Shown piece by piece: positions 42,196-64,000 of a stretch of DNA of 64,000 nucleotides. How positions within the stretch are numbered: the stretch's first letter is position 1; each line of letters opens with the position of its first letter. The stretch is from positions 1 through 64,000 of IMG/VR virus record IMGVR_UViG_2933348407_000001, one strand, 5' to 3'. Made by a program: the position numbers and the translations under genes. Source of the stretch: a virus. Its lineage: Duplodnaviria; Caudoviricetes. A model generated the notes under the pieces. That model was not told where the DNA came from, ran no database searches, and worked only from the letters and a program-made list of their open reading frames with translations.

Positions 42196-42334
42196 CCGGC
42201 CGACGGCACCGGTGACCCACCGAGTCTCGCCGCCGGGTCCAGCCCCCGAGCACGCGGCACGGCCACGGGGCGGGGCCCGGTCGGGCACCCCCGGAAACCG
42301 TCGCGCACCGGGCTCCCCAGGCCCGTGCACGGAT

Positions 42335-43108
42335 TTAGATGCGCGAGTTGCTCAGCGACTGCCATACAGCGCCGGCCAGCGCCCGCGTCGCCCGCGGGAC
42401 CGACAGGCGCTCGTGCCGGCGGTACAGGGCCCAGTTGTATTGCACGAGCGACAGCTTGTTGGAGGACAGCGATCCCGCCTGGTGGGCCCTGTACACCGCA
42501 AGGGGCTCAGCCAGGCCCCGGGCGTCGGCACCGTCCCGCATGATCGACAGCCACAGGGCGTAGTCCTGGCGCTTGCGCATCTCCGGCATCAGCCTCGTGC
42601 CCAGGACATTGCGGTCGTACATGGCGGTGAGAGCACCGATGTGGTCTCGGACCAGCATCGCGCGGTAGTCCACGTGCTCCCGCGCACGGACCACCCGCCC
42701 GTTCGGGACCCAGTCGGTGCTCTCGCCGTCGTAGTCGGCATCCATCTTGAAGTACGAGGTGAACGTCAGCGGCGCATCACCTTCCGCGGCGAAGGCGAGC
42801 TGCTTCTCGGTCTTCTCCGGAAGCCACATGTCGTCGGAGTCGAGAAAGGCGATGTAGTCCCCGCGGGCCCGCGCAATCGCCAGGTTGCGGGCCCGGCCCG
42901 CACCGCCCCGTTCGGGTGCCGACTCCGGCAGAACGCGCTCGTCCTGCTCGGCGAACTCGCGGAGCAGGTCCATGGAGCCATCGGAGGACTGGTCGTCGGT
43001 GACCAGCAGCTCCAGGTCGCTGTGGGTCTGCGTGAGCACCGATCGGACGGCTGCGCCGAGGGTGGCTGCCGAGTTGTACACGGGCATCACGACGGACACC
43101 AAGGGCAC
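42335..43108 (-). CDS. Family 2 glycosyltransferase (TuaG-like)
   Basis: VSVVMPVYN, DDQSSD, ARNLA, FLDSDD.W, QDYALW. Confidence 0.9.
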   Translation of the reverse strand: MPLVSVVMPVYNSAATLGAAVRSVLTQTHSDLELLVTDDQSSDGSMDLLREFAEQDERVLPESAPERGGAGRARNLAIARARGDYIAFLDSDDMWLPEKTEKQLAFAAEGDAPLTFTSYFKMDADYDGESTDWVPNGRVVRAREHVDYRAMLVRDHIGALTAMYDRNVLGTRLMPEMRKRQDYALWLSIMRDGADARGLAEPLAVYRAHQAGSLSSNKLSLVQYNWALYRRHERLSVPRATRALAGAVWQSLSNSRI

Positions 43109-43174
43109 AGCGCTTCTCCTTACCAGATCAGGAACGACGGTCCATTCAAGCACCGCATCCGAGTAGGAGCTGCC

Positions 43175-44425: not shown

Positions 44426-44473
44426 CTCCCGAACTCCCCTGGCCTGCTGCTGACTTCAACCCCCGGAGTTCCC

Positions 44474-47647: not shown

Positions 47648-48001
47648 GTGACTACTCAGCGAACCTCCTGGGCGCTCGCGCGTGAAGCCGCCGGCCTGTT
47701 CCTCACCGCGTTCGGCCTGCTCGGCGTCCTCGTGGCGTTGGGCGCACTCCACTGGGCCGCCGGACTTTCCGCCGCGATGGCCGGTCTCCTCGCCACGGGC
47801 CTGTTCATGCGCCCGAAGCCGACCGCAGCGCGCTGGGCGCACCTTGCCCGTGCCGCCGTCTGCATCCTCGGCTACGGCGGTCTCACCGGCTGCGCGTTCG
47901 CCCTCTGCACCCCCCTGGGCTGGATCGGCGTCGCCCTGGCGGTCGTGCTCCTCGGCCTGTGGCTCACCACCCGTGAGCACGAGGACGAGGGGGCCGCCTG
48001 A
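47648..48001 (+). CDS. Small multi-pass membrane protein preceding portal
   Basis: Four hydrophobic segments; TGATG overlap with portal. Confidence 0.75.
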   Translation: MTTQRTSWALAREAAGLFLTAFGLLGVLVALGALHWAAGLSAAMAGLLATGLFMRPKPTAARWAHLARAAVCILGYGGLTGCAFALCTPLGWIGVALAVVLLGLWLTTREHEDEGAA

Positions 48002-50463
48002 TGCCCCGCCAGTTCCTCCCGACGCTCCGGGGACTCCTCGTACCGCGCTTGGCTGCTCCCCCGCCCACACCGACCGCTGAGACCAAGGACCTGCTCGCGG
48101 GCAACGCCTACGTGTCGATGACGTACGCCGGCGTCACCAACGTGTGGGGCACGCCCGGCCGCGCGGACGGCTGGGACATGGAACGCGTCATCGTCGAGGG
48201 CTACGAGCGCTCCATCTGGACCTTCAAGTCCATCGAGGCGATCAGTAAGCACGCCAGCACCCTCCCGATCCAGATCGGCCGGGGCGGGGACGAACGGCGC
48301 TTCGAGGAGACCCTCGACGACCACCCGCTGCTGAAGCTGCTCAACAAGAAGGCCAATCCGCTCGAGACCGGCGATGTCTTCAAGAAGCGGCTGAGCGCAC
48401 AGCTCCTTCTGTCGAAGAAGGGCGTCTTCATCGAGAAGACCTACAGCCGCGGCGGCAACCTCGTACGCCTCGACCTGCTTCCGCCGGACCGCGTCCAGAT
48501 CATCCCGGACGACCGTAACGCCGACTACGTGAAGCACTTTGAGTTCACGGACTACAGCGGCCACGTCCGGGAGCTGCTGCCCAAGCACGTCATATGGATT
48601 CGCGACCCCCACCCTCTCGACCCTTTCTGTGGCGTCACCCCGCTCGAAGCGGCGGGCCTGTCCATCGACTTGGACGTCAAGGCCCGCACCTACAACATCA
48701 GTTTTATTGACAATGACGGCAGACCGGGCGGAATTGTCGGTATCGACCTGGAAGGAGTCGACCAGCGCGAAGTCGACCGCATCCAGAAGCGATTGGCGCC
48801 CGGCGCGCACAGCGCCGGCCAGCTCACCCTCGTTGGCACCGGGCCCGGCGGCGTCACCTACGTCGACACCTCCGCCCGCCCTCGCGAGATGGCCTACGAG
48901 ACGCTGTCCGGCACCTCTAAGGGCGAGATCCTGGCCGCGTTCGGTGTCCCCGAAAGCATCGTCGGCAACGCCTCTGAGCGGACCTACGCGAATGCTGACC
49001 GCGAGGAATACAACTTCTGGGACCACACGGAGCTGCCCCACCTCAACCTGATCGCCTCCGGGTTCGACCCGGACCTCGATGACGAGTGGATCGTCCGCTT
49101 CGACACTTCCAGTGTTCAGGCACTGGAGTTTCCCCGCCGCCAGGCCCGCGAGGAAGCCCGCAAGGAGTGGGAAGCCGGCCTCATCACGATCGACGAGTAC
49201 CGGGAGATCGCGGGGCGACCGGCATTCAACGTCCCACAGTCCCGGGCCCTTTGGATCTCTCCGCAGAAGGCCCCCGTACCCGCCAACGACCAGGACGCCG
49301 CCGCACTGGGCCTCGGCCCCGACCCGGCCGCGGGCGGAACACCCGGAGCGGTGCCCACCGGCGCCCCGCTCCCGCCGGGCACCGCTCCGGACACCGCGGC
49401 CGCCGACGTCGCCGCCGCCCGCGCTCTGGACGCTGGCCCGAGCGCCGCCGCGGATGTCGCCGCCGCACGAGCGCAGGGCACGCCCCTCGCCCTGCCCGCC
49501 GGTTCGACGGCTACCGACGCCGTCGCAGCGGCCCGCGCCGCCACTACCGACAGCGGCCCCGGCGACGCGGCCGCCGACGTCGACCGCGCCCGCAGCGCCC
49601 AGAACGCTGCACTCCCCGGCGACGCCGCCGAGGACGTCGACGCCGCACGCGCCACGGTCGAGACCAAGGCCCTGCCCGAGGACGACGGATACGAGGTCAC
49701 TGACGACGACTTCGACGCTCTGTCCATGGCCGTGGCCGCGGCCGTCACCGCGCTCCTCGCACGCCAGGAAGGCGTCATACTCGCCCGGCTACGCGCTCCG
49801 AAAATCCGCAAGTACACGCGGTACTGGGAGCCCGAGAACGACGACGACGTCCGGCACGTCGACGCCGACCTCGACCAGGACCGTGTTGTCAGCGCCGCCC
49901 GCTGGGCCGAGGAGACCAGCCAGACGCTGACCCCGATCCTCCAGCAGGCGGCCATCGCCACGGCACGCAAGGTCGGCCAGGCACTCACCGGCACCGACGA
50001 AGTCCCGCCGGCCGCGGCAGCGGCCGCCATCGTTACCGCGGCGTACGCCAGCGAGGCCATGACCACGTTCCTCCGTGAACTGGCCACCGCCCTGTTCGAC
50101 GCACAGCACGGAGTACCGACGATCAGCGACCTCGAGAACGCTGTCGCCTTCTTCTACCGCTCCGCGGCCCCCAGCCTGGTGGCACGACTAGCCGAAGCCT
50201 GCGCCGTGGCAACCATCAACGGCGCCGCAGACGCGGCCGCGGAGCACGCCGGCCCCGACGTCGTCCGGACCTGGATCACCCGCGGAGACACCCGCGTACG
50301 GCCCGCCCACAAGGCACTCCACGGCACGACGCTGCCCGTCGGCACCCCGTACACCGTCGACGGTGCCACCCTCCGCTACCCCGGCGACCCCTTCGCCCCC
50401 ATCGCCCTCACGATCAACTGCCGCTGCCGCCTGCACTACGCCACCGACAAGGAGCCCCAGTGA
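48001..50463 (+). CDS. Phage portal protein fused to MuF/gp7-like head morphogenesis domain
   Basis: HPLLKLL..NP, GVTPLEAA, ILAAFGVP, TYANA, GLITIDEYRE (HK97-type portal); C-terminal TWITRGDTRVRPAH..LRYPGDP..INCRC. Confidence 0.88.
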   Translation: MPRQFLPTLRGLLVPRLAAPPPTPTAETKDLLAGNAYVSMTYAGVTNVWGTPGRADGWDMERVIVEGYERSIWTFKSIEAISKHASTLPIQIGRGGDERRFEETLDDHPLLKLLNKKANPLETGDVFKKRLSAQLLLSKKGVFIEKTYSRGGNLVRLDLLPPDRVQIIPDDRNADYVKHFEFTDYSGHVRELLPKHVIWIRDPHPLDPFCGVTPLEAAGLSIDLDVKARTYNISFIDNDGRPGGIVGIDLEGVDQREVDRIQKRLAPGAHSAGQLTLVGTGPGGVTYVDTSARPREMAYETLSGTSKGEILAAFGVPESIVGNASERTYANADREEYNFWDHTELPHLNLIASGFDPDLDDEWIVRFDTSSVQALEFPRRQAREEARKEWEAGLITIDEYREIAGRPAFNVPQSRALWISPQKAPVPANDQDAAALGLGPDPAAGGTPGAVPTGAPLPPGTAPDTAAADVAAARALDAGPSAAADVAAARAQGTPLALPAGSTATDAVAAARAATTDSGPGDAAADVDRARSAQNAALPGDAAEDVDAARATVETKALPEDDGYEVTDDDFDALSMAVAAAVTALLARQEGVILARLRAPKIRKYTRYWEPENDDDVRHVDADLDQDRVVSAARWAEETSQTLTPILQQAAIATARKVGQALTGTDEVPPAAAAAAIVTAAYASEAMTTFLRELATALFDAQHGVPTISDLENAVAFFYRSAAPSLVARLAEACAVATINGAADAAAEHAGPDVVRTWITRGDTRVRPAHKALHGTTLPVGTPYTVDGATLRYPGDPFAPIALTINCRCRLHYATDKEPQ

Positions 50464-50705
50464 GACGCACAGCCAGCTTCATCCGACGGAACCTCAGCGC
50501 GTTTCTCTGGGGCGGCTGGGCGCTGTTCTTCGCGGTCTACGAGACGATCGCGCTGCTCACCAAGAAGGACGACGACACGCTGAGCGAGAACACGCGCAAG
50601 CTGTTCCGCATACGGAGCTCGAAGGCAGGACGCGCCGCGTTCACGGTCATCTTGGGCGGAGGCGCAGCGTGGTTCCTGCTGCACATCCTCACCGAGACGA
50701 TGTAA
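50460..50705 (+). CDS. Small two-TM membrane protein
   Basis: GTGA overlap; two hydrophobic helices. Confidence 0.7.
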   Translation: MRRTASFIRRNLSAFLWGGWALFFAVYETIALLTKKDDDTLSENTRKLFRIRSSKAGRAAFTVILGGGAAWFLLHILTETM

Positions 50706-50774: not shown

Positions 50775-50805
50775 CGCGACGCTAACCACCCGCACTGTGC
50801 ATGGT
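50775..50805 (+). promoter_or_regulatory. Element-specific promoter motif, copy 5
   Basis: CGCGAC-gctaaccacccgcactgtg(19)-CATGGT, 7 nt before ATG 50813. Confidence 0.7.
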
Positions 50806-50812
50806 CCGCGCC

Positions 50813-53800
50813 ATGCTGAATCGCCCCACTGCACAGGCTGAGTCGCAGGACCTGAGTCGCGACCTCGAGGTCAAGGTCACGCGCCGGCCGTGGAACCCTG
50901 CCCTGCACCCCCGGGACAGCAAGGGCCGCTTCATCGAGACCGGCGGCGTGGTGAGGACCTGGGGCGGCAAGCTCGCCCGCGTCATCCGCGCGCTCCCCCA
51001 CGACCGCATCCTCGTCCAGGACCAGACCGGCCCGAACGAGTTCAACGGCCGCAGGCACACCACCAGCGCCAAGTGGGTCAGCATGGTCGCGCGCCCCGAC
51101 GGCAGCGCGCCCACCGACGACGAAGAGAAGGTCGCCGAAGAGGACGAGCGGCGCACCCAGGACCCGCGCCGCGGCAACGGCGTAGCCCGCGACGACGACG
51201 GCGACCCGGATACCCCGAACGAGCCTCACGACCAGGACGACAAGGGCCGCCCGATCGGCGACGACGACGGCGACGGCCCGGACAACGATGACGACCAGGA
51301 CGAGCCCGAGGACGGCGCCCATCCGGTCAACGTCGATGCCCTCCCGAACCGGCAGCACGCGGCCGGGGCCCGGCATAAGGACACCGCCGCCGTCCGTCGT
51401 CACTTCACGCAGCTCGCCGAGCAGCCCGGCACGAGCCCCGACATGGCCACGTTCCTGCTCTCGGTGGCCCACGACGACGACCTGCAGACCGCCCCGTCCG
51501 GCCGCCTCGCGATCCTCCGCGACGAGAGGAACGGCCGCTTCTACCTCACGGCAACCGGCACCGGACAGCGCGTCGATGCCGCCGGCGACTTCGACACCGC
51601 TCAGGACGCCGAACGATTCGCCGAACACCTCGACAAGACCGCCGTCAACGGTCAGCTCACCAAGTTCCAGCAGCCGTTCGACTTCTCCGACCCGCAACTG
51701 GACCGGGAGGCCCGCGACTGGCGCACCACCAGGGGAGAGAACATCCAGGGCGCCATCCAGCGGGCCCGAACAGAGTTCGCCGGCACCCCGGCGCCCACGG
51801 CTACGCCGAAGACCTCCGCGGACAACCGGACCGACGGCAGCGGCCAGCGCTTCAGCACTCTCCAGGCCGCTCGCGCCCACTGGCAGCAGCGCCTCGGCCA
51901 GATCAACGACCTTGGCCCGGACAGCCTTCGAGAGCAGCGAGCCGCGCGACACCTCGAAGGACTGATCAGCAACGACCGGATCAAGCTCGTCGGCCGCGGC
52001 CAGTTCGTCGTCGGCCAGGACCAGAACGGCGAGTGGTACCTGGTCGCAACTGGCAACGGCCTGCCCCTCCGCCGTCGGTGGACCTCCCAGCGCGGCGCAC
52101 AGGCATTCGCCGAGTCCTTCGCCGAGAACCCGCCCATGGGAGACGACGGCAAGCCGCTGGACCTGTCGGACCCCAACGTCCGCATCGCAACCTGGCGTTC
52201 CGAGGACAACCGGTCGATCAGTGAGGTCATCGACGCGGCCGCCGAGAAGTTCCAGCGCGAGAACGCCGCAGGGGAACCACCAGCCGTCACCCCGGCGCCG
52301 GCCGCCGTTCCAGAGACGCCCGCCGCTCCGCAGGCGCCGGAGACCCCGGAGGAGCCGCAGGCGCCCGCGCTGCCGGGCAACGCCGAGCCCGTCGAGGGCG
52401 TCGACGGCTACCACTACGTCAACGATGGCGGATCAATCACCCTGTACGGCCCGGACGGACAGGTCGCCGCGACGAGCGAGCGCGGCTACCCGCCGCAGGC
52501 CAAGATCGACGGCGTCACCGTGCCCGTCCCGCAGTACCCGAAGCAGGGCGCCGCGGTGATGGCCCGCCTGCACCGCGCTGCGAAGAACCCGGACCAGCGT
52601 GACCGGATCACTGCGGCGTGGGTCATGAAGCCCGGCAAGGACGGCAAGCCCGCCAAGCGGGTCATGGTCTTCCGGGGCACCATCAAGGGCGACGATCGGG
52701 ACTACGACGCCGTGGGCTCCACCCGCGCCATCAAGTGGGCCCCATCCCTGCGCGCCTACTCGACCCAGTCGAACATGACCGAGGCCACGCGCGATGAGCG
52801 GATCTCGGAGGTCCTGTCCAACCTCGCCCGTCAGGGCCGCAACGTCCACGTCACCGACGAGACCGCTGCCGGCGCCCCGGGCGCCCCGGCCAACGCCGTC
52901 GACGAAACCGAGGCCCTGCGCAAGGCCATCGCCAACGCGGATGACGCCCGCCTGTCGCAGATGAAGTACGAGCGGTGGGGAACGATCAACCGCACCCGCT
53001 CCGAAGCCAACCGCCGACGCCTCAACTCCGAAGTCGAGATGATCGACGACGAGTTGAAGCGCCGGCGCAAGGAGCGGGACGAGGCCGCCGCCCGAGACGC
53101 CACGTCGCTCAGCGACGACGACATCGCCAACCGCATCCGCGAGTCGCAGGAGGAACGCGGAACCTACGGCGTTCGCAAGGGCCAGGAGGCCAACGACGTT
53201 GAGCGGGCCATTTACAGCGAGCGCCGCCGCCGCTCGCAGGCCCTCGTCGACGACGACACCGACCTGACCACGGCCGCCGAGGACGACCTGGCCAAGGCCC
53301 GCGAGACCGTCGCCGAACGCGTCCGCATGCACCAGGCCGCCGGCGACGACCCCGAGGCCGAGCGCACCATGCGCCAGGCCCTGCAGAACCGGCACGACGT
53401 CATCGTCGGCGAGCAGCAACGCCGCCACGCCCAGCAGATCGCCGACCGACCGCCGGTCGTCGACCTCACCGACGAGGAACTGTCGCAGGAGTACAACGAC
53501 TTGCTCCGGCGCGACTTCCGGAAGGCCCCGCCGGAGGCCCAGCAGGTCCTCGAGGGCCGCATGGAGGACGTCAAGCGGGAGCGCCGCGACCGGGAAAAGC
53601 GGGCCATCACCGACCGCGATGCCCCCGAGAACCTGAGCGATGAGGACCTGAAGGAGGAGTACACCGAGCTTCGCCGTACCCGCTCCTCGTACACCGGGAC
53701 CGACGACGTCAAGGCGGCCCGCAAGGAACGTATGGCCGCGCTGGAGGCCGAGCAGAACCGCCGCGACACCACGCCGGAGACTGAGCAGCTCCTCGCCCGC

Positions 53801-56800
53801 GTCGACAACCCCGACGCCAACGGCATGATCAGCATCGACGGCCGCAGCGGGTACGGCTACGTCGACTACCGGGATCAGACGCACGGGTACGCGGGCCGTC
53901 AGCTCGGATGGACCTGGGGCAAGCAGAGACACAGCCACGGAGACACGGCGTACCCGTCTCGTGCCGCGGCCCTGGCCGCGATGGTTCAGGCGTACGACAA
54001 CGACCCCGACACCCGCGGTGAGCGGACCTGGGGCACCAAGCGCCGCGTATTCGTGCCGAAGATGTTCGTCGAGCTGTACCAGAACGAGCGTCTTCGCGAC
54101 CGGCTCGCCGACGCCAGCGAGGAGCGGCAGTTCCTCTACAGCCTGTTCCGGGACCGGTACGGCTGGGACGACGGCGTGAACCCCCTGGTGCCCAGTAACA
54201 AAAAGGGCCACAACATAAAGGGCCGGAACCTGTGGGTGCCCGAAGGCCTCCTCGCCGAGCTGAACCGGGTGACGGAGGAGCTGTCACGGGACATGTCCGT
54301 GCGGGCCACGGACCGGGACGCGGACAGTTCCGACCGACAGAAGGCCAAGACCCGGCTCGCTTCCATCAACGTGGCTCTGCACGGCATTGAGGCGCAGCGC
54401 GAGTCAGTCCGCAAGAATGGCGGGGACGACGACCGGAAGGTCATCTCCCGCGAGGAGATCGAGGCACAGCAGGCCGCGCTCCGTGCAGCGCTGGGAGGCG
54501 ACGATGACGAACATGTTCAGTCCGATGGTCCGGGATCACTGGAGGACGTACCTGCCCAAGGAGTGGGCGGCGATGACCGATCCGGAGGCGTTCGTCGAGA
54601 CGAAGGCCAGGGAGATCGAGACTCAGATTCTGAAGGCCGAGGAGGCTCTGGAGCAGACAGTTCCGGAGCCGACGGAGTACGAGGAGCAGGTCGGCCGGCA
54701 CAAGCAGATCAGGGCGGACGCAACAGCGATGGTCCTGGCGGAGCTTCTGCCGGAGCCGGAGCCCGGGGCGGAGAAGGCGCCGGAGCAGACGCCAATGGAG
54801 AAGCACCTGCAGGAGATCAGGGACCTGATGTACGACGCGTAGCGCGGTTCCGGCCGGACCCGGCCAACGCGCCCAAGGGCGCCCGCGCGCGTGCGACGGC
54901 CAACGTCGAGGCCATTCGCGTCCTCAAGAAGCTGGAGGCAGAGAACCGGCCGGCCACCGACGAGGAGCGCCGTATCCTCGCCCGCTGGTCCGGCTGGGGA
55001 TCGGTGCCGATCCTCTTCGCCAACGAGCCGAACGAGAAGGAGCCCCGCTACCAGCAGGGCGGTACCCGGTACGGCAAGTTCGCCAAGGACCACGAGCGGT
55101 GGTCCGAGTACAGCGACGTCCGCAGCGAGCTGCAGCGCGTGCTCACGCCGGTGGAGTTCCGGCAGGCATCCCGCGGCGTGCTGTCCATGCACTACACGCC
55201 GCAGCCCATCGCCGAGGCGATGTGGGAGGGCCTTCGGGCGTTCGGCTTTGACCGCGGTGACGTCCTCGAAGCCGGTTCCGGCGCGGGCACGTTCTTCGGC
55301 GTCGCTCCGAACGGTGCCCGTCTGACCGGTGTCGAGCTGGACCCGACCACGGCCCGGATCGCCCAGGCGATCTACCCGCACGCCAATGTCCTGAACGAGT
55401 CCTTCGCGGAGACCGACGTCGGTCCCGGCACCTTTGACGCCGCGATCGGCAACGTCCCCTTCGCCCGGGTCCCGTTCGATGACAAGCGGTACCCGGCGGA
55501 GAGCCTGCACAACGGCTTCGTCACCAAGGAGATCGCCCTCGTCCGGCCCGGCGGCATCACCGCCGTCATCACCTCTCGCCAGACCCTCGACTCCAAGGGC
55601 GACAGGGCCCGCCGCCAGATGGCCAAGTACGGCGACCTGGTCGGCGCCGTCCGCCTGCCCTCCGGCGTCTTCACCGACGCCGGCACCGGGGTCACCACCG
55701 ACGTCCTCGTGTTCCGTCGCCGCGAGGACGGCACCGAGCCGGCTGACCCGTCGTGGCTGGACGCCCCCGAACGGGACATCAACGGCACCGCGCACCACAT
55801 CAACGCCTACTTCGACGAGCACCCCGAGCACATCCTCGGCACGCTGACCACGCAGTCCGGCCCGTACGGGCCCGAGGTGACAGTCAAGGGCGACCCGGCC
55901 AAGGCCGCCGAGCAGCTTCGCGCCGCGCTCGACGACATCGCCGCCAAGGCGAAGGCTGACGGCCGCGGCTACGAGCCGCACCCCGACGGCGACAACCGGC
56001 CTCCGGTGCAGCTCCAGACCGCCCGGGAGAAGCACGCGAACGACTGGACGGGCCGCCTGTACGAGGGCGACGACGGCCAGTTCTACCAGCACGTCAACGG
56101 TGCTGAACCGGTCCTGCTGGAGCCGGCCGACGGCAACACCGCCCAACTTCGTGCCCTCATGCAGCTCCGCGACGTCGCCGCCGAGCTGCGCGAGCTGGAC
56201 CGGAAGAACGACGAGGAGGAGCGCGCCGAGGCCCTGCGCGCCCAACTCCGGGACCTGCACGCCGACTACGTCGCCGAGTACGGGCCCCTGTCCAAGCCGG
56301 GCCAGCACCGCACCAAGGGCGGCCGCCCCACGGCATGGGGCTACTTCCGGGCCGACCCGGACGCCGCGGCCGTCCTCGCCCTGGAACGGTGGGACGCCAG
56401 CAAGGGCGAGCCCGCCCTCTCCCGCGTCTTTACCGAGCGCGCCGCCGCTCGCCGACAGCCGCTCTCCTCGACCAACGACCCGAAGGCGGCCCTGGCCGCG
56501 GTCGTTGCTGCCAAGGGTGAAGTGGACCTCGGCGAGATTGCCCGGCTCCTCGACGTCACCCCGCAGGAGGCGGTGAAGCGCCTCGGCAACGAGGTCTTCA
56601 CCGACCCGGAGACCGGCGGCCTCGAACTGGCCGGCGCCTACCTGTCCGGCGCCGTCCGCGACAAGCTCGATGCCGCCCGCAAGGCCGCCGAGCGCGACCC
56701 GGGGTACGCGGTCAACGTAGCCGCGCTGGAGGCCGTTCAGCCGCCGGACCGCACCATCGGCCAGTTCACCCCGGAGATGGGCGCCCACTGGACGCCCCCG

Positions 56801-59800
56801 GAGCTTCTGCAGGGCTTCCTGCGCGAGTACCTGGGCGACCGCACACTCCGCGTCGCGCACGACGACCGGTACGGCTGGGTTCTCAACACCGGCCGCGTGC
56901 CCGAGGCCAACAACGTCATGTACGGCGTCCCGGCCGTCGAGCCCGACCCGGACAAGGGCATCAAGGGCAACAAGGGCAAGAACGCCGTTGAGATCGCCCG
57001 CGCGATCCTCGGCTTCGGCTCGCTGACCGTCTACGAGGACGACAAGCGCAAGGAAGTCGACGAGGCTACGTCACGTCTGATCCGGCAGAAGGCCGATCAG
57101 ATGCGGGCCGAGTTCGCCAAGTACGCCACGGCGAACGCCGAGCGGCTGAGCGTCCTCACCGACTCGTACAACCGCATCATGAACGGGCACATCGTCCGTT
57201 CGTACGAGGGCATGTCGCCCACGCTCGAGGGCTTCACCCCCGACCGCAACCCGCACGCCTGGCAGCTCGCCGGCGCGGCCCGGATGCAGTTCGAGCGGGG
57301 CGTGATCCTCGCCCACGAGGTGGGCCTCGGCAAGACGTCGACGCTCGTCATGGGCACCCAGGCTCTCAAGGCGTCCGGGCAGATCGAAAAGCCCATGGCC
57401 GTGGTGCCCAACCACGTCTCCAAGCAGTTCTACGACGAGGCCCGACTTCTCTACCCGAACGCCGACATCCACCTGATCACTTCGGCGGACCTGGCCGGCG
57501 ACCGGCGAGGCAGCACGCTGGAGTGGCTGCGCGCGAACAAGCCGGACCTGGTCATCTTCACCGAAGAGGCGTTCGGCTCGATCAAGATGAGCCCGGAGGC
57601 TCAGGACGACTACGAGTTCCGGGAGCTGGAGGCGCTGCGCGAGCAGCTTGACCGCCAGTACGAGGACGCCGACAACCCGAACCACCCGTTCATCGTCGCG
57701 AAGATCGAGCAGCGCATCGCGACGGTCAGCAAGAACATCAACAAGAACGCCGCCCCGATGCGGCGGCCGGGCGAGACGTACTGGGACGACCTCGGGTTCG
57801 ACTACTTCGTCGTCGACGAGGCCCACAGGTACAAGGGCGTCGGCTTCCGCTCCAAGGAGGGAGGCGGCGACCCCGCGTCCATCCGCGGCGTCGACCTGCA
57901 CCAGAAGACGACCGATCTGCACCGCCGCCGCCAGGGCCGGGCCACGATCACGCTCGCCACCGGTACGCCGCTGTCGAACAGCATCAGCGAGCAGTTCACC
58001 ATGCTGATGTTCGCGGCGCCGTGGGTGCTGGACGCCTACAAGGCGGGCGCTCCGGACCTGTGGGCCAACACCTTCGGCCGCAAGACCCTGCGCATCGAGA
58101 ACGCGCCCGACGGCTCCGGCCTGCGCGTCGTGGAGCGGTTCTCCGAGTTCCACAACAAGCGCGCCATGAAGACCATGTGGGGCCTGGTCGCGGACACCAA
58201 GCGCGGTGACGACGTCGGCATTCCCCGCCCGAAGCTCAAGGGCGGCAAGCCGAATCTGATCATGGTCGACGCGACGCCCGACCAGAAGAAGCGCCTCAAG
58301 GGGCTCGTCGCCCGCGGCCGCGCGATCCACAACGGTGAGGTCGACCGCCACCAGGACAACATGCTCGCGGTGTCCAACGAGGGCACCAGCGTGGCCCTCG
58401 ACCCGCGGCTCATCGACGCCAAGGCCCCGGCCGGCAACAAGCTCAAGGCCGTCGCAGACCGGCACATCGAGCGCTACTTCCAGCACAAGGACCGGATCTA
58501 TCCGGTCACCCGCGACAGCCTCGTCGACCACCCCGTCCCGGGCGCCCTCCAGATGATCTTCCTGAACGAAGGCGTCCCGGGAGGCAAGAACAAGGGCAAC
58601 TTCGACGCCTACGCCGAACTCAAGCGGCTCATGGTCGCGGGCGGCATCCCCGCGCACAAGATCGCCTTCGTCCAGGACGCCAAGAAGTCCGGCAAGCCCG
58701 AGGACATGACGGAGCTGTTCCGGAAGGCCCGCGAAGGAGAAATCGCGGTCCTCATCGGCTCCAGCGCCGTCGCGGGTACGGGCATGAACGCCCAGGACCG
58801 CATGATCTCCCTCTCGCACGTCGACCTCGACTGGGGCGCCGCGCAGATGGAACAGCGCAACGGCCGCATCCTGCGCTACGGCAACCTGAACCCCGAAGTC
58901 GAGATCGACATCTACGCGACCAAGGGCTCCATGGACGGCTGGAAGGCCGGATTCGTCGCCGCCAAGGCTGAGGGCCTGGTCGACATCCAGCGGCCCGAGC
59001 CGGAAGACGGCGACTCCAGCGACGTCGTCCAGGAGATCGACGGCGCCGAGTTCGACTACGAGACGATGGAAGCCGAGATCGGCGGCAACCCCTTCATGAG
59101 CCAGCTCATGAAGGCGAAGCGCCGTCTCAAGGACCTGGAGATCGACCAGCACAACGAGGCCGCCGAGCGTATCCGCCGCGCCGAAGCCCTCGATGCGCTG
59201 CGCCAGGAAGCCCAGGCCACCCGCGACGGCATCCAGCGCCGCGAGCAGGCCCTGCCCCGCATCCAGGAGGCCGACGACCGGTTCCGCATGACCATCGGCG
59301 GCTCCCCGTATGGCGAGCGCTCCGACGCTGGCAAGGCCCTGCACCGGCAGATCACCTCCCGCCTCCTCGAGCACAATCGTGAGGGCCTGAGCGACTGGCA
59401 CGTCCTTGGCCAGTTCCGCGGCCTGGACTTCGGTGTCCGCACCGAGAAGACAGCGGACGGCAAGCTCGTCGCGCACGTCGGCTTCCCCGACCTGCGGCAC
59501 TCGGACTTTGAGCGGACCGTGGAGGACCTGCAGAAGAAGGGCGCCGGGGCGGGCATGATCACCCGCCTCGGCAACGCCCTCGACAAGGCGCCCGCGTTGC
59601 AGGAGTCGGACCAGGCCAAGGTTCCGGAACTGGACGAGCAGATAGCCCTGCTCCAGTCCGCACACGCGGCCGCGGACCTCACCCCGCAGATCGACCACGC
59701 TCGCAAGCGGTCGAACCTGCTCGAGGAGATCGTCGCCCGCGTCACCAACCTGGACGCGAAGCCGGAGATCGACCCCGACGAACTCGACAAGGAGCGGTAC

Positions 59801-62800
59801 AAGAACAAGGACGACCGCGAGAAGATCGCCAAGGGGCGGCGCGAGGAACGCGAGCCGCTGCAGGCCGCCGTCGACGAGGCCGTCGCGAACCTGCACCGCT
59901 GGGACGAAGAGAACCCGGCACCCGAACAGGACGACACGGTCCGCCTCTCCGAAGACGAGGTGCGCGAAGCCCTCGCCCGCCTCACCCCGGAGCCCAGCAC
60001 CCCCCCGAAGCCGGGCGCCCCGGAGACCAACAACCGCAGTTCCGCGGATGCCGACACCGACGTCGACGAGCCGAACCCTGACGAGACGGAGGCACCTGAC
60101 ACCACCGGATCAGGCAGCAGCGACGAGCCGCCGGCCGCCGTACCGGCCGAGGGTGACACCGACGCCCAGAACGACGGCCAGGACCAGGACGACGTCGTTC
60201 GCCTCTCCGAGGAAGAGGTGAACGACACCCTCGCCAGCATCCAGCCGGACGCCGACACGACCGGAGGCGACGAGCCGGACGAGCCGCTGCGGTACGCGTG
60301 GGACAAGCCCGAGGACTTCGTCACCCTGACCATGCCGGCTGCACTCGCCGACTTCCTCAACGTCGACGAGACCGCCGCCATGGAGGACCCCGACACCCGA
60401 AAGGCCCTCAAGGAGGCCAAGCCCGGCCGCCGCGGCACACTCCAGGTGACCGGCCCGATCGAGGTACACCGCGCCCTCCTCCAGTGGGCATGGACGCTCG
60501 AGGGCGGCGAAGGACTGGAGTCCGACCCCAGCGATGTCCGGGCCTACAAGGCGTACGCCAAGCGCATCGACGAGGCCGACGCAGACCTGCAGCGCCGTCG
60601 CGCCGAGCGGGAGGCCGCGGCCTCCGCGGACACCGACGAGAACAACACCCCGGACACGGACAACACGAACGACGGCGGCAGCGACGCGCCGCCGGCCGAC
60701 GCCCCCAGCACGGCTGAGCCGGACGGCGAGGACGACCAGGACCAGAGCACCGACGACGACACGGAGGCCAGTGACACCGTCACCCTGACTCCGGATGAGG
60801 TGTCCGACCAGCTCGACGCTGTACGCCCCGAGGGGTCCAAGGCTCCGTCCTCGATGGACGATGGCGAGATCCGCGACGAGATCGTCGACCTGATGGGCCG
60901 TGAGATGGCGGATGAGCTGTCCGGCGCGGACCGTACCCGCCTGCAGGTCCTGGAGGCGGAGGAGGCCCGCCGTGCCGGCCGGGCCCCGAAGCCGGAGCCC
61001 AAGCCGAAGCGGACGACCGAGGAGCCCGGGGGACTCTTCGACGTCGACCAGCCCACCACCCAGCAGCCGAGCAGCGCCGCCGATGTCGACAACCCTGAGG
61101 ACCAGCCCGACGACCTCTTCGGCACGCCGGACATGATCGCCGACGCCGAGGGCCGCAGCACCGAGGGCCTGCGCCCGGCGCGCATGCGCAACGCCGCCGA
61201 CTTGGAGCAGGGCGACCGGTACACCGACGCAGACGGCCGCACGCACACCGTGTCCGAACCGCCGGTCAAGACGCCTCGTGGCCGGACTCGCATCGTCACC
61301 GACGACGGCGAGGAGCGCTTCTACAACGCCGACGCCCAGGTGCGCCTGCGCTACCCGGACGAGGAGATCCCCGACAACGAGACCGACGAGCGGTCCGCCG
61401 ACGACGATGCGGACAACGTCCCGGCCGTCGACGAACCGGAGACCTCCGAGCCGGACGTCGACGGGACTCCCGCCGACGAGCCGGAGTTCACCCCCGACAG
61501 CTACCGCAGCAGCGCCAAGGACCGCGCCGACCGCATGACCGGCCTCATCGACCAGGCCACCGACGGGGCAGGCGGTGACGAGCTGCCCGAGGTCAGCGAG
61601 GTCCGTGATGCGTTGGGCAGGGCCGAGGACTCCGACGACCCGGACGCCGAGCTGCGTTCCGCCGCCGACCGGCTCGACGACCTCGCAGAGATGTATGAGC
61701 TGGGAGGCCCCGACGGAGAGCGCGCCGCAGACCTGTTCCGGCAGGCCGCCCGCATCGCGAGGGGTGAGGACGAGGACGATCGCCGCGGCGACGACGACCG
61801 CAACGAGGACGACAGCGAAGCCCCCGACGCTACGAACCAGGACTCCGAGGAGGACCAGGACGACGACGAGGAACGCCAGCAGCGTCGGAATGGGGACGCG
61901 GACAGCGACGCCGCCGACCCGGACGGTGCCCCCGACGGAGGCGGCGCTGGCACCCCGGCCGCTCCCACCGACGAGGAGGACGAGGACGGCAGCCCCGACG
62001 ATGTGCCCGACAACTCCGACGACGAGCAGGACGAGCCGGAGGCCGAGGAAGACGACGAGCAGGACGACCGTCGCCGACGTCGCCGTCGGCGTCGCCGCAA
62101 CGGCGGTGGCGGCAGCGGCGGCCCCAGCGGGCCCGGCCTGCCGCACCTGAACCTGCCCGACCTCAACACGCCGGACACCGGAGGCGCCGACGGCAACGGG
62201 GATGGCGGAGACGGCCGCGGTACGCGCGACCGCGGGCGGACCCCTGTACGGCACAGCGACGTCAATTCGCTGCGCCGCGCCTGGAAGAACGGCGATGGGC
62301 TCACTCCTGCCGAGGACACTCCGCAGCGGCGCGAGGCCCTGGCACAGGCGGCCGACCGGGACGGCTTGGCTCTGTCTCCGGGCGGGGGCCTGGTGACGTG
62401 GCCCGAACAGCAGGAAGACGGCACCACCCTGTGGCGCTTCGCCCAGGCACGCAACGGCGCCAACCTGACCGGACTGTCCCTGACCACCGAAGACCCCGAA
62501 GAGGCCCGCGCGCTCGCAGGCCGCTTCGAGGAGATCACCGGTCGCGACGGGCAGCCCTTCGACTGGCAGCAGGCGTGGGGCCCGAGCACCGTCGGGCAGT
62601 GGCGCGACGGGGAGGGCCGCAACCTGCAGCGGGCGCTCCAGGCCGTCCTCGACGACTTCGAGCAGCAGCGGGACGCCTCCGCCCAGCCGGAGCCGACGCC
62701 AGAACGGAGGGCGCTGCCAGACGACCTCACCGGCCTCGACGACGACGAGCTGGTCGACGCGTGGAGCAACGACCTCAGCGACGAGGACCAGAAGCGCCTC

Positions 62801-64000
62801 ATGGCGGAGATGGACCGCCGCGACGGCTACACGGACCAGCGCGTTCGTGACGTGCTGCCGGACACCCCGCCAGCCGACGCCGAAGAGGCCGAGCGCCGCG
62901 CAAAGGCCGTCGACGAGGCCCTCGGCTTCGCAGGCGCCGACGTTCCGCGCGTGCGTCGCACCCGTGAGGACATCATCCGTGCGGAGTTCGCCGACTTCGA
63001 CGAGGCCCGCTACCAGGCCGCCATTGCCGCCACGAACGGCTACTTCTACGCCCGGAAGTACAAGTACGGCAGCGGCATCAACGAACGAGAGCTGTTCTCC
63101 GGCGGTGAACTCGCCAAGTTCGGCCGCTGGGAGGAGTACGCCAGCGAGGAACTGAAGGACTGGTACAAGGCCAACGGCGGCCGCATCACGTACAACCAGT
63201 TCCGGCAGACCTACCGGGACAACGACCGCCGAGACCGGCAGCAGTTCGAGGAGGAGCAGCGCCGCCAGGCGGAAGCCGGGCAGACCACGGAGCCCACCAC
63301 CCCGGAGACGGAGCCGTACGACCCGGTCACGCCGCGCTTCGCGGATGAGGCGGCCCTTCGGGATCACATCCGCAGCGGGCAGCTCGACGAGGTGCCCGAA
63401 GACCAGCGTGGAGACGTGCCCTCAGCCGAGGAACGCGCGCAGATCGCCGATGCCGAAAGCACCCAGCTCTCCGACGGCGGCCGACTGCTCATCTACGGCA
63501 ACGAGGCCGGTCGCACCGGCAGCCGCAGCGGGCAGCGGTTCGACGTGGCCCTTCCGGGCAGCATGCAGCCCCTGTTCCGCAGCGGCTTCCACAGCGCCGA
63601 GAAGGCCCGCCAGTACGCCAGCGTCCTCGAGGGCATCAAGGACGCGGACGGCAACCCGTTCCCGTGGGACGCCCCCGACGTCGCCGAGCGCGCCCGCGCG
63701 TTCCGGACCGCCGACGGCAACCGGCTGTTCGACGAGATCACGGAACGCCTGTACGGCTTCAACGACCTCTACGAGCAGTGGAACAGCGACCGCGGCCAGG
63801 CATTGCACCACCGGACGTGGAGCCAGCAGGAAGCCGACTGGAACACCCGCGAGGAGGAAGCCGGCTACTCGATTCCCGTCGACCTGACGGACATTCGCCC
63901 GGGTGACGAAATCAGCTTCCCCGTGGCCACGAGCCGCGGACAGAACACGCGGCCGCAGGACGAGTACGTGGGAACCGTGCACGCTACGGTGACCGGCGAG
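50813..64000 (+). CDS. Giant polyvalent protein (at least 4,396 aa, 3' partial) with DarB-like N6-adenine MTase + SNF2 helicase core
   Basis: Same frame at start, middle and end with no terminated ORF listed in it; WNPALHPRDSKGRF; ANVEAIRVLKKLEAENRPAT..RWSGWG; LEAGSGAG; GNVPF; HEVGLGKT; DEAH; TGTP; QRNGR; alternative start 50801. Confidence 0.9.
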   Translation, partial: MLNRPTAQAESQDLSRDLEVKVTRRPWNPALHPRDSKGRFIETGGVVRTWGGKLARVIRALPHDRILVQDQTGPNEFNGRRHTTSAKWVSMVARPDGSAPTDDEEKVAEEDERRTQDPRRGNGVARDDDGDPDTPNEPHDQDDKGRPIGDDDGDGPDNDDDQDEPEDGAHPVNVDALPNRQHAAGARHKDTAAVRRHFTQLAEQPGTSPDMATFLLSVAHDDDLQTAPSGRLAILRDERNGRFYLTATGTGQRVDAAGDFDTAQDAERFAEHLDKTAVNGQLTKFQQPFDFSDPQLDREARDWRTTRGENIQGAIQRARTEFAGTPAPTATPKTSADNRTDGSGQRFSTLQAARAHWQQRLGQINDLGPDSLREQRAARHLEGLISNDRIKLVGRGQFVVGQDQNGEWYLVATGNGLPLRRRWTSQRGAQAFAESFAENPPMGDDGKPLDLSDPNVRIATWRSEDNRSISEVIDAAAEKFQRENAAGEPPAVTPAPAAVPETPAAPQAPETPEEPQAPALPGNAEPVEGVDGYHYVNDGGSITLYGPDGQVAATSERGYPPQAKIDGVTVPVPQYPKQGAAVMARLHRAAKNPDQRDRITAAWVMKPGKDGKPAKRVMVFRGTIKGDDRDYDAVGSTRAIKWAPSLRAYSTQSNMTEATRDERISEVLSNLARQGRNVHVTDETAAGAPGAPANAVDETEALRKAIANADDARLSQMKYERWGTINRTRSEANRRRLNSEVEMIDDELKRRRKERDEAAARDATSLSDDDIANRIRESQEERGTYGVRKGQEANDVERAIYSERRRRSQALVDDDTDLTTAAEDDLAKARETVAERVRMHQAAGDDPEAERTMRQALQNRHDVIVGEQQRRHAQQIADRPPVVDLTDEELSQEYNDLLRRDFRKAPPEAQQVLEGRMEDVKRERRDREKRAITDRDAPENLSDEDLKEEYTELRRTRSSYTGTDDVKAARKERMAALEAEQNRRDTTPETEQLLARVDNPDANGMISIDGRSGYGYVDYRDQTHGYAGRQLGWTWGKQRHSHGDTAYPSRAAALAAMVQAYDNDPDTRGERTWGTKRRVFVPKMFVELYQNERLRDRLADASEERQFLYSLFRDRYGWDDGVNPLVPSNKKGHNIKGRNLWVPEGLLAELNRVTEELSRDMSVRATDRDADSSDRQKAKTRLASINVALHGIEAQRESVRKNGGDDDRKVISREEIEAQQAALRAALGGDDDEHVQSDGPGSLEDVPAQGVGGDDRSGGVRRDEGQGDRDSDSEGRGGSGADSSGADGVRGAGRPAQADQGGRNSDGPGGASAGAGARGGEGAGADANGEAPAGDQGPDVRRVARFRPDPANAPKGARARATANVEAIRVLKKLEAENRPATDEERRILARWSGWGSVPILFANEPNEKEPRYQQGGTRYGKFAKDHERWSEYSDVRSELQRVLTPVEFRQASRGVLSMHYTPQPIAEAMWEGLRAFGFDRGDVLEAGSGAGTFFGVAPNGARLTGVELDPTTARIAQAIYPHANVLNESFAETDVGPGTFDAAIGNVPFARVPFDDKRYPAESLHNGFVTKEIALVRPGGITAVITSRQTLDSKGDRARRQMAKYGDLVGAVRLPSGVFTDAGTGVTTDVLVFRRREDGTEPADPSWLDAPERDINGTAHHINAYFDEHPEHILGTLTTQSGPYGPEVTVKGDPAKAAEQLRAALDDIAAKAKADGRGYEPHPDGDNRPPVQLQTAREKHANDWTGRLYEGDDGQFYQHVNGAEPVLLEPADGNTAQLRALMQLRDVAAELRELDRKNDEEERAEALRAQLRDLHADYVAEYGPLSKPGQHRTKGGRPTAWGYFRADPDAAAVLALERWDASKGEPALSRVFTERAAARRQPLSSTNDPKAALAAVVAAKGEVDLGEIARLLDVTPQEAVKRLGNEVFTDPETGGLELAGAYLSGAVRDKLDAARKAAERDPGYAVNVAALEAVQPPDRTIGQFTPEMGAHWTPPELLQGFLREYLGDRTLRVAHDDRYGWVLNTGRVPEANNVMYGVPAVEPDPDKGIKGNKGKNAVEIARAILGFGSLTVYEDDKRKEVDEATSRLIRQKADQMRAEFAKYATANAERLSVLTDSYNRIMNGHIVRSYEGMSPTLEGFTPDRNPHAWQLAGAARMQFERGVILAHEVGLGKTSTLVMGTQALKASGQIEKPMAVVPNHVSKQFYDEARLLYPNADIHLITSADLAGDRRGSTLEWLRANKPDLVIFTEEAFGSIKMSPEAQDDYEFRELEALREQLDRQYEDADNPNHPFIVAKIEQRIATVSKNINKNAAPMRRPGETYWDDLGFDYFVVDEAHRYKGVGFRSKEGGGDPASIRGVDLHQKTTDLHRRRQGRATITLATGTPLSNSISEQFTMLMFAAPWVLDAYKAGAPDLWANTFGRKTLRIENAPDGSGLRVVERFSEFHNKRAMKTMWGLVADTKRGDDVGIPRPKLKGGKPNLIMVDATPDQKKRLKGLVARGRAIHNGEVDRHQDNMLAVSNEGTSVALDPRLIDAKAPAGNKLKAVADRHIERYFQHKDRIYPVTRDSLVDHPVPGALQMIFLNEGVPGGKNKGNFDAYAELKRLMVAGGIPAHKIAFVQDAKKSGKPEDMTELFRKAREGEIAVLIGSSAVAGTGMNAQDRMISLSHVDLDWGAAQMEQRNGRILRYGNLNPEVEIDIYATKGSMDGWKAGFVAAKAEGLVDIQRPEPEDGDSSDVVQEIDGAEFDYETMEAEIGGNPFMSQLMKAKRRLKDLEIDQHNEAAERIRRAEALDALRQEAQATRDGIQRREQALPRIQEADDRFRMTIGGSPYGERSDAGKALHRQITSRLLEHNREGLSDWHVLGQFRGLDFGVRTEKTADGKLVAHVGFPDLRHSDFERTVEDLQKKGAGAGMITRLGNALDKAPALQESDQAKVPELDEQIALLQSAHAAADLTPQIDHARKRSNLLEEIVARVTNLDAKPEIDPDELDKERYKNKDDREKIAKGRREEREPLQAAVDEAVANLHRWDEENPAPEQDDTVRLSEDEVREALARLTPEPSTPPKPGAPETNNRSSADADTDVDEPNPDETEAPDTTGSGSSDEPPAAVPAEGDTDAQNDGQDQDDVVRLSEEEVNDTLASIQPDADTTGGDEPDEPLRYAWDKPEDFVTLTMPAALADFLNVDETAAMEDPDTRKALKEAKPGRRGTLQVTGPIEVHRALLQWAWTLEGGEGLESDPSDVRAYKAYAKRIDEADADLQRRRAEREAAASADTDENNTPDTDNTNDGGSDAPPADAPSTAEPDGEDDQDQSTDDDTEASDTVTLTPDEVSDQLDAVRPEGSKAPSSMDDGEIRDEIVDLMGREMADELSGADRTRLQVLEAEEARRAGRAPKPEPKPKRTTEEPGGLFDVDQPTTQQPSSAADVDNPEDQPDDLFGTPDMIADAEGRSTEGLRPARMRNAADLEQGDRYTDADGRTHTVSEPPVKTPRGRTRIVTDDGEERFYNADAQVRLRYPDEEIPDNETDERSADDDADNVPAVDEPETSEPDVDGTPADEPEFTPDSYRSSAKDRADRMTGLIDQATDGAGGDELPEVSEVRDALGRAEDSDDPDAELRSAADRLDDLAEMYELGGPDGERAADLFRQAARIARGEDEDDRRGDDDRNEDDSEAPDATNQDSEEDQDDDEERQQRRNGDADSDAADPDGAPDGGGAGTPAAPTDEEDEDGSPDDVPDNSDDEQDEPEAEEDDEQDDRRRRRRRRRRNGGGGSGGPSGPGLPHLNLPDLNTPDTGGADGNGDGGDGRGTRDRGRTPVRHSDVNSLRRAWKNGDGLTPAEDTPQRREALAQAADRDGLALSPGGGLVTWPEQQEDGTTLWRFAQARNGANLTGLSLTTEDPEEARALAGRFEEITGRDGQPFDWQQAWGPSTVGQWRDGEGRNLQRALQAVLDDFEQQRDASAQPEPTPERRALPDDLTGLDDDELVDAWSNDLSDEDQKRLMAEMDRRDGYTDQRVRDVLPDTPPADAEEAERRAKAVDEALGFAGADVPRVRRTREDIIRAEFADFDEARYQAAIAATNGYFYARKYKYGSGINERELFSGGELAKFGRWEEYASEELKDWYKANGGRITYNQFRQTYRDNDRRDRQQFEEEQRRQAEAGQTTEPTTPETEPYDPVTPRFADEAALRDHIRSGQLDEVPEDQRGDVPSAEERAQIADAESTQLSDGGRLLIYGNEAGRTGSRSGQRFDVALPGSMQPLFRSGFHSAEKARQYASVLEGIKDADGNPFPWDAPDVAERARAFRTADGNRLFDEITERLYGFNDLYEQWNSDRGQALHHRTWSQQEADWNTREEEAGYSIPVDLTDIRPGDEISFPVATSRGQNTRPQDEYVGTVHATVTGE
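54504..54842 (+). CDS. Nested TnpV-like protein (112 aa) in a different frame inside the giant ORF
   Basis: GGAGG RBS + ATG; GC3 bias switches to this frame; HWRTYLPKEWAAMTDPEAF..EYEEQVGRHKQIRADATAMVLAELL. Confidence 0.75.
   Translation: MTNMFSPMVRDHWRTYLPKEWAAMTDPEAFVETKAREIETQILKAEEALEQTVPEPTEYEEQVGRHKQIRADATAMVLAELLPEPEPGAEKAPEQTPMEKHLQEIRDLMYDA

Follow-up and report, generated by a model that had tools for sequence, protein, structure and literature searches.

Comparative analysis of a 64,000-nucleotide stretch of DNA (hereafter the window; positions 1 to 64,000 of IMG/VR record IMGVR_UViG_2933348407_000001, a record classed as viral, with a G+C content of 68%) indicates that a short interval on its plus strand, positions 54504–54842, is likely to be a genuine dual-coding region from which one mRNA gives two products. 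The interval is contained within a giant open reading frame (ORF) that starts from an ATG at position 50801, extends on the same strand for more than 4400 codons, and is still open at the 3' end of the window at position 64000. To judge from comparisons between homologous loci, both of the frames that share the interval are very probably translated, the giant frame as a predicted disordered linker that leads into a DarB-like methylase-helicase module, and the nested frame as a separate acidic protein of 112 residues, here termed P0001, which resembles TnpV.

Organisation of the Overlap

The nested gene (54504–54842, plus strand) occupies the +1 frame of the giant ORF and runs from an ATG through 112 codons to a TAG. 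It is preceded by a Shine-Dalgarno-like GGGAGG (54493–54498, plus strand) placed five nucleotides before the ATG, which the giant frame reads within the peptide L-G-G-D, and its terminating TAG (54840–54842, plus strand) is embedded in a pair of giant-frame codons, GTA-GCG (Val-Ala), and lies two codons upstream of the methylase RFRP motif. An earlier reading of the window, made from its letters alone and referred to below as the sequence-only reading, had proposed both a same-strand ORF of 112 codons with its own ribosome-binding site and a TAG where the methylase begins (ARFRPDP..ANVEAIR), and both features were found at exactly the positions that it gave. The smaller ORF accordingly lies wholly inside another frame and carries its own start signals; its product is acidic (isoelectric point 4.6) and predicted to be all-helical.

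The same reading had claimed that the third-position G/C bias moves to the nested frame over this interval, and sliding windows of 180 nucleotides bore this out. The third-position G+C of the giant frame, which is 0.85–0.97 on both sides of the overlap, is down to 0.37–0.43 across 54480–54839, and over these same positions the nested frame takes on the coding pattern of high-G+C DNA (first position, 0.55–0.75; second position, 0.37–0.43; third position, 0.85–0.92). When the whole 13.2 kb of the giant ORF within the window was scanned, the frame switch at 54401–54910 proved to be the only clear one. Two other stretches of the giant ORF, 61600–62260 and 63341–63490, exhibited a first-position G+C equal to or slightly above that of the third position together with a low second-position value, and look like coding sequence rich in Gly, Ala, Asp and Glu rather than a second frame switch.

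Across the overlap the giant frame stays open, again as had been proposed, as a low-complexity linker of 112 residues (54503–54838, plus strand) that is rich in Gly, Asp, Ala and Arg (G31, D17, A15, R11, S10 and E6; isoelectric point 4.2) and predicted to be disordered. A start-codon scan located GTG 54563 as the sole start-like codon of the giant frame within the overlap, and the next ATG, GTG or TTG in that frame past the nested TAG is GTG 55004, which lies 53 codons into the conserved methylase N-terminus. Because no start codon occurs near the junction, the methylase module would be makeable only by reading through the nested gene. A scan of 53900–55100 for sigma-70 promoters and intrinsic terminators, a type of scan that is weak for Streptomyces, returned no sites, and no run recorded as RNA containing the stretch was found in a search of sequencing runs.

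Conservation of an Open Giant Frame across the Nested Gene

In total 94 loci from Streptomyces and at least ten other actinomycete genera were examined. A set of 72 comprised the window plus 71 loci recovered by tblastn and pattern searches that used the nested protein alone, and which were consequently blind to the state of the giant ORF; a further 16 new loci were obtained by searching with the methylase module only, and six additional plasmid loci (L101–L106) were examined as candidate solo TnpV-like genes. A methylase-helicase gene accompanied the small gene in 94/94 loci, in keeping with the pairing anticipated by the sequence-only reading. The helicase frame, which is −1 relative to the nested ORF, was open across the entire small ORF in 91 of the 94, made up of all 72 loci from the nested-protein searches, all 16 from the methylase search, and three of the six further plasmid loci. 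Since the loci are related by descent, and some are possibly one element filed in two collections, joint statistics were limited to 20 representatives at no more than 60% identity, the independence of which is assumed.

As a null expectation, synonymous codons of each nested protein were resampled from the codon usage of its own flanks. By this measure the probability that the giant frame would be open ranged from 0.002 to 0.48 per locus among the 72 loci, and for the 20 representatives taken together 42.6 stops were expected and none was observed (summed log10 P = −19.8). Both frames therefore remain stop-free in homologues beyond chance, the outcome for which the sequence-only reading had suggested looking. 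The sole route to a stop in the helicase frame is a T at a nested third position before AA, AG or GA, and T was found in such contexts in 0 of 724 cases as against 128 of 1864 elsewhere (Fisher p = 2.5e-19). The search conducted with the methylase alone revealed, in 29 of 29 viral loci, a match to a TnpV-like hidden Markov model immediately upstream in the +1 frame, and none in the other two frames. Such comparisons support the view that the small gene is read through in the giant frame, where stops are selected against.

Synonymous choice in the nested gene was also marked by its third base. Four-fold codons of the nested gene ended in G in 68–83% of cases compared with 31–43% in the flanks, in all four locus groups (p <= 4e-74), and in the window alone G-ending and C-ending four-fold codons numbered 31 and 10 in the nested ORF as against 690 and 1412 in the rest of the giant ORF (Fisher p = 3.5e-8). 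The nested third base is the first base of a giant-frame codon, at which G specifies Gly, Ala, Asp, Glu or Val, and C specifies Arg, Pro, His, Gln or Leu. By comparison with a synonymous null without stops, the linker was enriched in Gly (0.296 versus 0.199), and also in Ala and Asp, and was depleted in Arg (0.098 versus 0.189), and also in Pro, His and Leu; its hydrophobic fraction was at or below the null mean in 67 of the 67 loci tested. Nucleotide diversity was flat over the three codon positions in the overlap (0.08–0.14), the giant-frame third position reaching 0.16–0.27 in the flanks. These patterns suggest that selection acts on what the giant frame encodes in the overlap. An AlphaFold2 model of a 412-residue giant-frame segment, in which the overlap corresponds to residues 101–212, gave a predicted local distance difference test score (pLDDT) of 28–33 in ten-residue blocks spanning residues 101–210, and of less than 50 over residues 89–214, whereas the blocks on either side reached 67–92; the low pLDDT of this stretch is consistent with a disordered linker.

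The six further plasmid matches all adjoin or lie inside giant helicase genes, and none was solo. L103, L104 and L106 exhibited the nested layout, with a four-fold G/(G+C) of 0.72–0.75. By way of contrast, L101, L102 and L105, located on Streptomyces linear plasmids, contain the same TnpV-like gene directly 5' of the same kind of giant helicase gene, and in the same relative frame, but as an un-fused coupled pair: the giant gene has a separate ATG that overlaps the stop of the small gene (TGATG or TAATG), 4, 9 and 6 stops respectively interrupt the −1 frame over the length of the small gene, T is present in 4/36, 9/34 and 6/38 of the risk contexts, and codon choice is near normal, with a four-fold G/(G+C) of 0.45–0.56 as compared with 0.39–0.43 downstream. 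As the coupled loci are without the strong signatures of the nested ones, stop avoidance and G bias are tied to read-through, and not to the TnpV-like gene as such.

The principal alternative view of these data is that the giant frame is untranslated over the interval, with the locus consisting of two or three genes, the methylase-helicase being reached by reinitiation, by programmed frameshifting at the TAG, or from a non-canonical start, and the long ORF being an artefact of high G+C content. Long spurious ORFs are many in high-G+C genomes, and the coupled loci confirm that a two-gene version exists; moreover, in the window taken by itself the giant frame would be open by chance with P = 0.28, so that its openness there is unremarkable. 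The nested stop is TAG in 66 of the 72 loci (TAA in four and TGA in two), which could hint at a recoding site; however, TAG is the only stop ending in G, and its dominance may be explained by the same G preference as is seen at third positions throughout the gene. Set against this alternative, the part of the giant ORF upstream of the overlap is without a stop codon in its frame, the deficit of stops is shared by 20 lineages, the G-ending bias spans the whole nested ORF and is not confined to its end, conserved peptides are present in the giant frame on both sides of the overlap, and the true two-gene loci look different in the respects described above. Programmed frameshifting was dropped as a main model because no slippery heptamer, and no homopolymer run of five or more, occurs in 54400–54900; Rfam gave no match at E <= 1 over 53800–55400. 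An untranslated giant frame is consequently judged very improbable.

A number of individual loci merit separate description. L002 (S. hirsutus, NZ_CP109265.1) was considered as a stand-alone gene and rejected, because the giant-frame flanks are kept and identify it as a giant-gene remnant; it therefore adds no separate support for the existence of a solo gene. In this locus an IS5 transposase adjoins the remnant, and the nested frame is the one called as a gene by the Prokaryotic Genome Annotation Pipeline (PGAP). In both L002 and a second remnant, L029, the nested ORF is intact but only some 220–300 giant-frame codons survive on its two sides. In L039 the giant frame is interrupted shortly after the nested stop, and in L046 and L050 further downstream. 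L104 corresponds to CP090840.1 (S. viridifaciens pKVP1), in which a giant coding sequence of ~12,450 residues contains the nested TnpV-like ORF in its +1 frame; this is the plasmid cited in PMC5512222 for a giant protein of 12,242 residues, which may be the product of the coding sequence in L104.

Conservation of the Nested Protein and Its Relationship to TnpV

The nested ORF was intact in 94/94 loci. Among the 72 recovered with the nested protein, the start codon was ATG in 71 and GTG in one, and an SD-like (Shine-Dalgarno-like) 5-mer preceded the nested start in 61, as against 8.8% of control positions within the same ORFs. Alignments indicated that residues R10, H12, W13, P18, A22, P27, G64 and A73 are kept down to about 28% identity. 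In three Streptomyces clades analysed by the Nei-Gojobori method, the ratio of nonsynonymous to synonymous substitution rates (dN/dS) in the nested frame was 0.47–0.58, the low value that the sequence-only reading had named as a check, while the same DNA read in the giant frame gave 0.96–1.32, and the flanks of the giant gene 0.17–0.46. Selection is in this way detectable on each frame of the overlap, on the nested frame from its dN/dS, and on the giant frame from stop avoidance and the G-ending bias. A profile built from 13 nested proteins matched 791 cluster representatives at E <= 1e-3 and, at the stricter limit of E <= 1e-10, 250 of these; the matches are mostly of 88–270 residues with the domain at the N-terminus, and homologues of the nested protein sit on plasmids and phage-like contigs. 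The AlphaFold2 model of the nested protein contained five helices with a pLDDT of 84. Collectively, the comparative data support the contention that the nested ORF encodes a real and conserved protein family.

It might alternatively be supposed that only the giant frame is expressed, the TnpV-like frame then being the relic of a swallowed gene that has stayed open solely through the constraint on this DNA to encode a linker. Such a relic would accommodate two observations, namely that the methylase module clearly cannot be reached without the giant frame, and that P0001 is without a direct family match. It would fit poorly with a nested-frame dN/dS of 0.47–0.58 in DNA whose giant frame evolves at about 1, and with the retention down to about 30% identity of the ATG, the SD-like 5-mer and, in 72/72 loci, a stop in a fixed place, since an unconstrained relic would have gained stops and lost its start over such divergence; a relic is accordingly considered very improbable. 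The notion that a pair of assembly or sequencing indels displaced what is really an in-frame TnpV-like domain of the giant protein, which has nothing but general possibility in its favour, is practically negligible, because the same layout (+1 offset, internal ATG, and terminal stop of the nested frame's own before the methylase module) recurs in 94/94 loci from many independent assemblies that include complete plasmids and genomes.

The sequence-only reading had likened the nested protein to TnpV, and this was only partly sustained. P0001 itself gave no match to PF14198, or to any other Pfam family, even at E <= 10, and the Pfam search that had been proposed as a check on the peptide therefore drew a blank. 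The likeness is instead apparent in its relatives, 22 of 66 of which, as recovered by the profile search, matched PF14198 at E <= 0.01 (best value, 1.1e-5). When ten relatives were inspected, six matched PF14198 at 14.8–24.9 bits, all of them under the gathering score of 27, and four of these six did so in one register (residues 2–84 against profile positions 23–111). Furthermore, Micrococcales relatives carry the PGAP label 'TnpV protein', and the nearest ESM Atlas clusters carry the TnpV name with scores of 0.91–0.93. The 66 top profile matches, when inspected by composition, looked actinobacterial. P0001 resembles TnpV in size (as a small protein of ~110 residues), in all-helical character, and in mobile-element location, and differs in being without a profile match, its relatives attaining 15–25 bits as against the gathering score of 27. 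Because the PF14198 matches are sub-threshold, the nested family is best described as a distant relative of TnpV rather than a member at the curated threshold, and on this profile resemblance the small protein is a distant TnpV-like protein. A tblastn search with P0001 against a phage collection gave no match, and blastn of the region against the phage collection gave only a 99-nucleotide methylase match in a Sinorhizobium phage.

Short Plasmid Forms, Age of the Arrangement, and Annotation

Fourteen of the loci are short plasmid forms of the gene pair, drawn from Rhodococcus, Ruania, Pimelobacter, Paenarthrobacter, Kocuria, Microbacterium, Pseudonocardia, Arthrobacter, Dermacoccus, Micromonospora, Sinomonas, Amycolatopsis and Actinacidiphila. 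In 14/14 of these the nested frame was +1 of the helicase frame, and likewise in 14/14 the helicase frame begins 5' of the nested ATG; in five, no ATG, GTG or TTG is present in the helicase frame anywhere within the overlap. In ~12 of the 14, the part of the helicase frame that precedes the nested ATG codes for a recognisable N-terminal peptide that consists of a basic stretch followed by (D/E)GQLSF(D/E)xLW. This short conserved peptide, MA(R/G)RR..(D/E)GQLSF(D/E)xLW, is located 40–260 nucleotides upstream of the nested ATG (L058–L060, L063–L067 and L006–L008); in the giant form present in the window, no such peptide was seen immediately before the overlap. The plasmid pairs come after parA/parB or an ArdC-like gene.

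It had been suggested in the sequence-only reading that read-through arose when a TnpV-like gene and a methylase-helicase gene were fused into a virion-targeted polyprotein. This proposal was not upheld: since all 14 short plasmid forms already start the helicase upstream of the nested gene, read-through is not a by-product of such a fusion. The giant gene in the window rather inherited an existing dual-coding junction, the arrangement being older than the giant fusion. It is old and widespread on actinomycete plasmids and on conjugative and phage-like elements, and not peculiar to this giant fusion.

The expectation that standard annotation would miss the nested arrangement was well founded. 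Either the giant coding sequence alone is called, or the start of the helicase is shifted to a position beyond the small gene or within its final part. Thus the 'helicase-related protein' of RefSeq/PGAP typically starts 3' of the small gene or late within it (L006, L008, L059, L060, L062, L064 and L065), and the misplaced start removes the GQLSF(D/E)xLW peptide and, in several records (e.g., L008 and L060), the FRP..DLAPSG motif. The original annotation of pTC2 (L058, CP000476.1) calls the long ORF.

The Giant Gene and Its Neighbourhood

The giant protein has an N-terminal part of ~1234 residues without a confident family assignment, followed by the overprinted linker, the DarB-like methylase-helicase module, and further sequence. 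At the N-terminus itself (50801–50980) there is the motif ..PALHPRDSKGRFIETGG.., which was matched to no family. The module (54839–59998, plus strand), a methylase plus an SF2/SNF2 helicase, begins VARFRPDP..ANVEAIRVLK, and its residues 11–1695 matched positions 1580–3270 of the 4647 in phrog_10089, 'DarB-like antirestriction', with an E value of 7.6e-268, a match that runs across both the methylase and the SF2 helicase as is the case in a DarB-like dyad. Matches to Pfam were weak (Eco57I/Methyltransf_25 for the methylase, SNF2, ResIII and Helicase_C), the cut-off being reached by ResIII only, and those to NCBIfam were to a DrmD-like helicase.

Upstream of the giant gene lie a portal protein with a C-terminal MuF-like domain (48001–50463, plus strand; Phage_portal, E 1.3e-41; Phage_Mu_F, E 3e-5) and then a short ORF (50460–50705), which places the methylase-helicase gene two genes downstream of the portal-MuF gene. 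The same order of portal-MuF gene, short ORF and giant gene is also annotated on the Streptomyces plasmids CP108533.1 and NZ_CP070374.1, and the plasmid homologue of the portal-MuF gene is annotated as 'phage portal protein'.

Elsewhere in the window, a complete Type ISP restriction-modification enzyme (17617–22518; Mrr_cat_2, ResIII/helicase, ISP coupler and Type_ISP_C) accompanies the DarB-like anti-restriction protein on this element. A protein of the FtsK/SpoIIIE family, of the Streptomyces conjugation type, is present at 31188–33194, and the stretch 42212–47037 contains a UDP-glucose dehydrogenase fusion, an ORF without a family match (44474–45859), and then a glycosyltransferase of the GT4 family. 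From the FtsK/SpoIIIE protein, together with the UDP-glucose dehydrogenase fusion and GT4 genes, the element can be seen to mix phage-like, plasmid-like and sugar-modification genes.

Discussion

The mechanism envisaged for the overlap is as follows. Ribosomes that start at 50801 would read through the interval and thereby produce a disordered acidic linker of ~112 residues, rich in Gly, Ala and Asp, that connects the DarB-like methylase-helicase module with the N-terminal part of the giant protein. Others that start at the internal GGGAGG-ATG (54493–54506) would read the +1 frame, yield a separate acidic, helical, TnpV-like protein of 112 residues, and terminate at the TAG that immediately precedes the methylase module. 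Amino-acid constraint would fall on the TnpV-like frame, with the giant frame held only to remain open, flexible and non-hydrophobic, a state that would be achieved through the G-ending synonymous codons of the nested gene.

Several considerations weigh against this account. The case for transcription and translation of either frame is one of sequence comparison. All of the 94 loci share descent, some may be one element represented in two collections, and the 20 representatives are independent by assumption; the coupled loci L101, L102 and L105 are likewise close relatives that amount to about one lineage, and the chance openness of the giant frame in the window alone has been referred to above. 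The rate of synonymous substitution in the nested frame (0.17–0.24) is below that of the flanks (0.27–0.51), of which the upstream one was poorly aligned, and the G-ending bias could in principle stem from a cause at the level of RNA rather than from the linker protein. In addition, P0001 has no match in Pfam, NCBIfam or PHROG, and its model gave no match to a PDB fold (Foldseek; best E, 6.7); with neither a family nor a fold to draw upon, any function assigned to it is a guess, and the roles put forward in the sequence-only reading (chaperone, inhibitor or internal translation coupler) are candidates.

With that proviso, our guess is that the small protein is a putative dedicated partner of the methylase-helicase, produced in a ratio that would be fixed by two initiation sites on the same transcript, and that nesting would fix both the co-inheritance and the relative dosage of the two products. 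The positions of the plasmid pairs, after parA/parB or an ArdC-like gene, provide a supporting context for such a partnership. A stronger version is a tentative proposal that we consider on balance unlikely, namely that the TnpV-like protein is an obligatory cis-encoded partner, either a chaperone or adaptor that loads the effector into capsids or a conjugation channel or an inhibitor that silences it in the donor, with nesting as a regulatory device. Ribosomes engaged on the giant frame would then pass over the internal Shine-Dalgarno sequence and ATG, and how much of the small protein is made would be determined by translation of the giant gene, perhaps in an inverse manner. Were this to be so, a common polyvalent-protein module of actinomycetes would turn out to be a system of two proteins concealed within a single ORF, and the orphan TnpV family would gain its first functional context.

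Irrespective of whether the two products are partners, a dual-coding junction that is spread phylum-wide, statistically well supported, equipped with a built-in natural control, and placed in one of the commonest polyvalent-protein modules is of wider significance. Cases of long genes nested on one strand that are evolutionarily well supported are few in bacteria and their mobile elements, and annotation pipelines are designed to disallow them. There is here a clear division of labour, by which the older frame bears the sequence constraint and the overprinting frame is tuned via synonymous sites as a flexible linker. Public annotation errs at these loci in one of two ways, by omitting the small gene or by placing the helicase start wrongly, with the loss of a conserved N-terminus. 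A hitherto uncharacterised TnpV-like family is now tied to DarB-like anti-restriction modules, and the plasmids of non-pathogenic Streptomyces or Arthrobacter would offer a tractable system for how two frames of one mRNA are balanced.

With respect to known systems, the study of polyvalent proteins by Iyer et al. (2017; PMC5512222) describes an adenine methylase fused to an SF2/SNF2 helicase, with an N-terminal LPD36, in giant phage and conjugative proteins. The module in the window is like the methylase-helicase dyad of DarB from phage P1 as treated there, and is similarly embedded in a giant gene beside a portal-MuF gene; a term search of that main text found no occurrence of 'TnpV', 'overlap' or 'frameshift'. 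Nested same-strand genes are already known as such, and among the papers listed by searches of open-access text none was found to describe a nested TnpV-like gene paired with a methylase-helicase.

Two precedents invite comparison. The Rz and Rz1 spanins of phage lambda are encoded by a larger gene and a small gene that lies wholly in its +1 frame on the same strand, and both are translated and cooperate. The window pair is similarly an embedded +1 same-strand gene on a mobile element; however, its embedded frame belongs to an older and widespread TnpV-like family, its enclosing frame gives, over the overlap, a low-complexity linker in place of a folded domain, the gene around it encodes more than 4400 residues, and the functional link between the two products is putative. 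In Bacillus subtilis, comS, which encodes 46 residues and is taxonomically narrow, lies out of frame in a structured enzyme domain of srfAB. That arrangement likewise comprises a small ORF with its own ribosome-binding site situated out of frame inside a giant multidomain gene, but differs from the one described here, in which the nested gene encodes 88–185 residues, occurs in at least 11 actinomycete genera, and overlaps a part of the giant protein that is predicted to be disordered.

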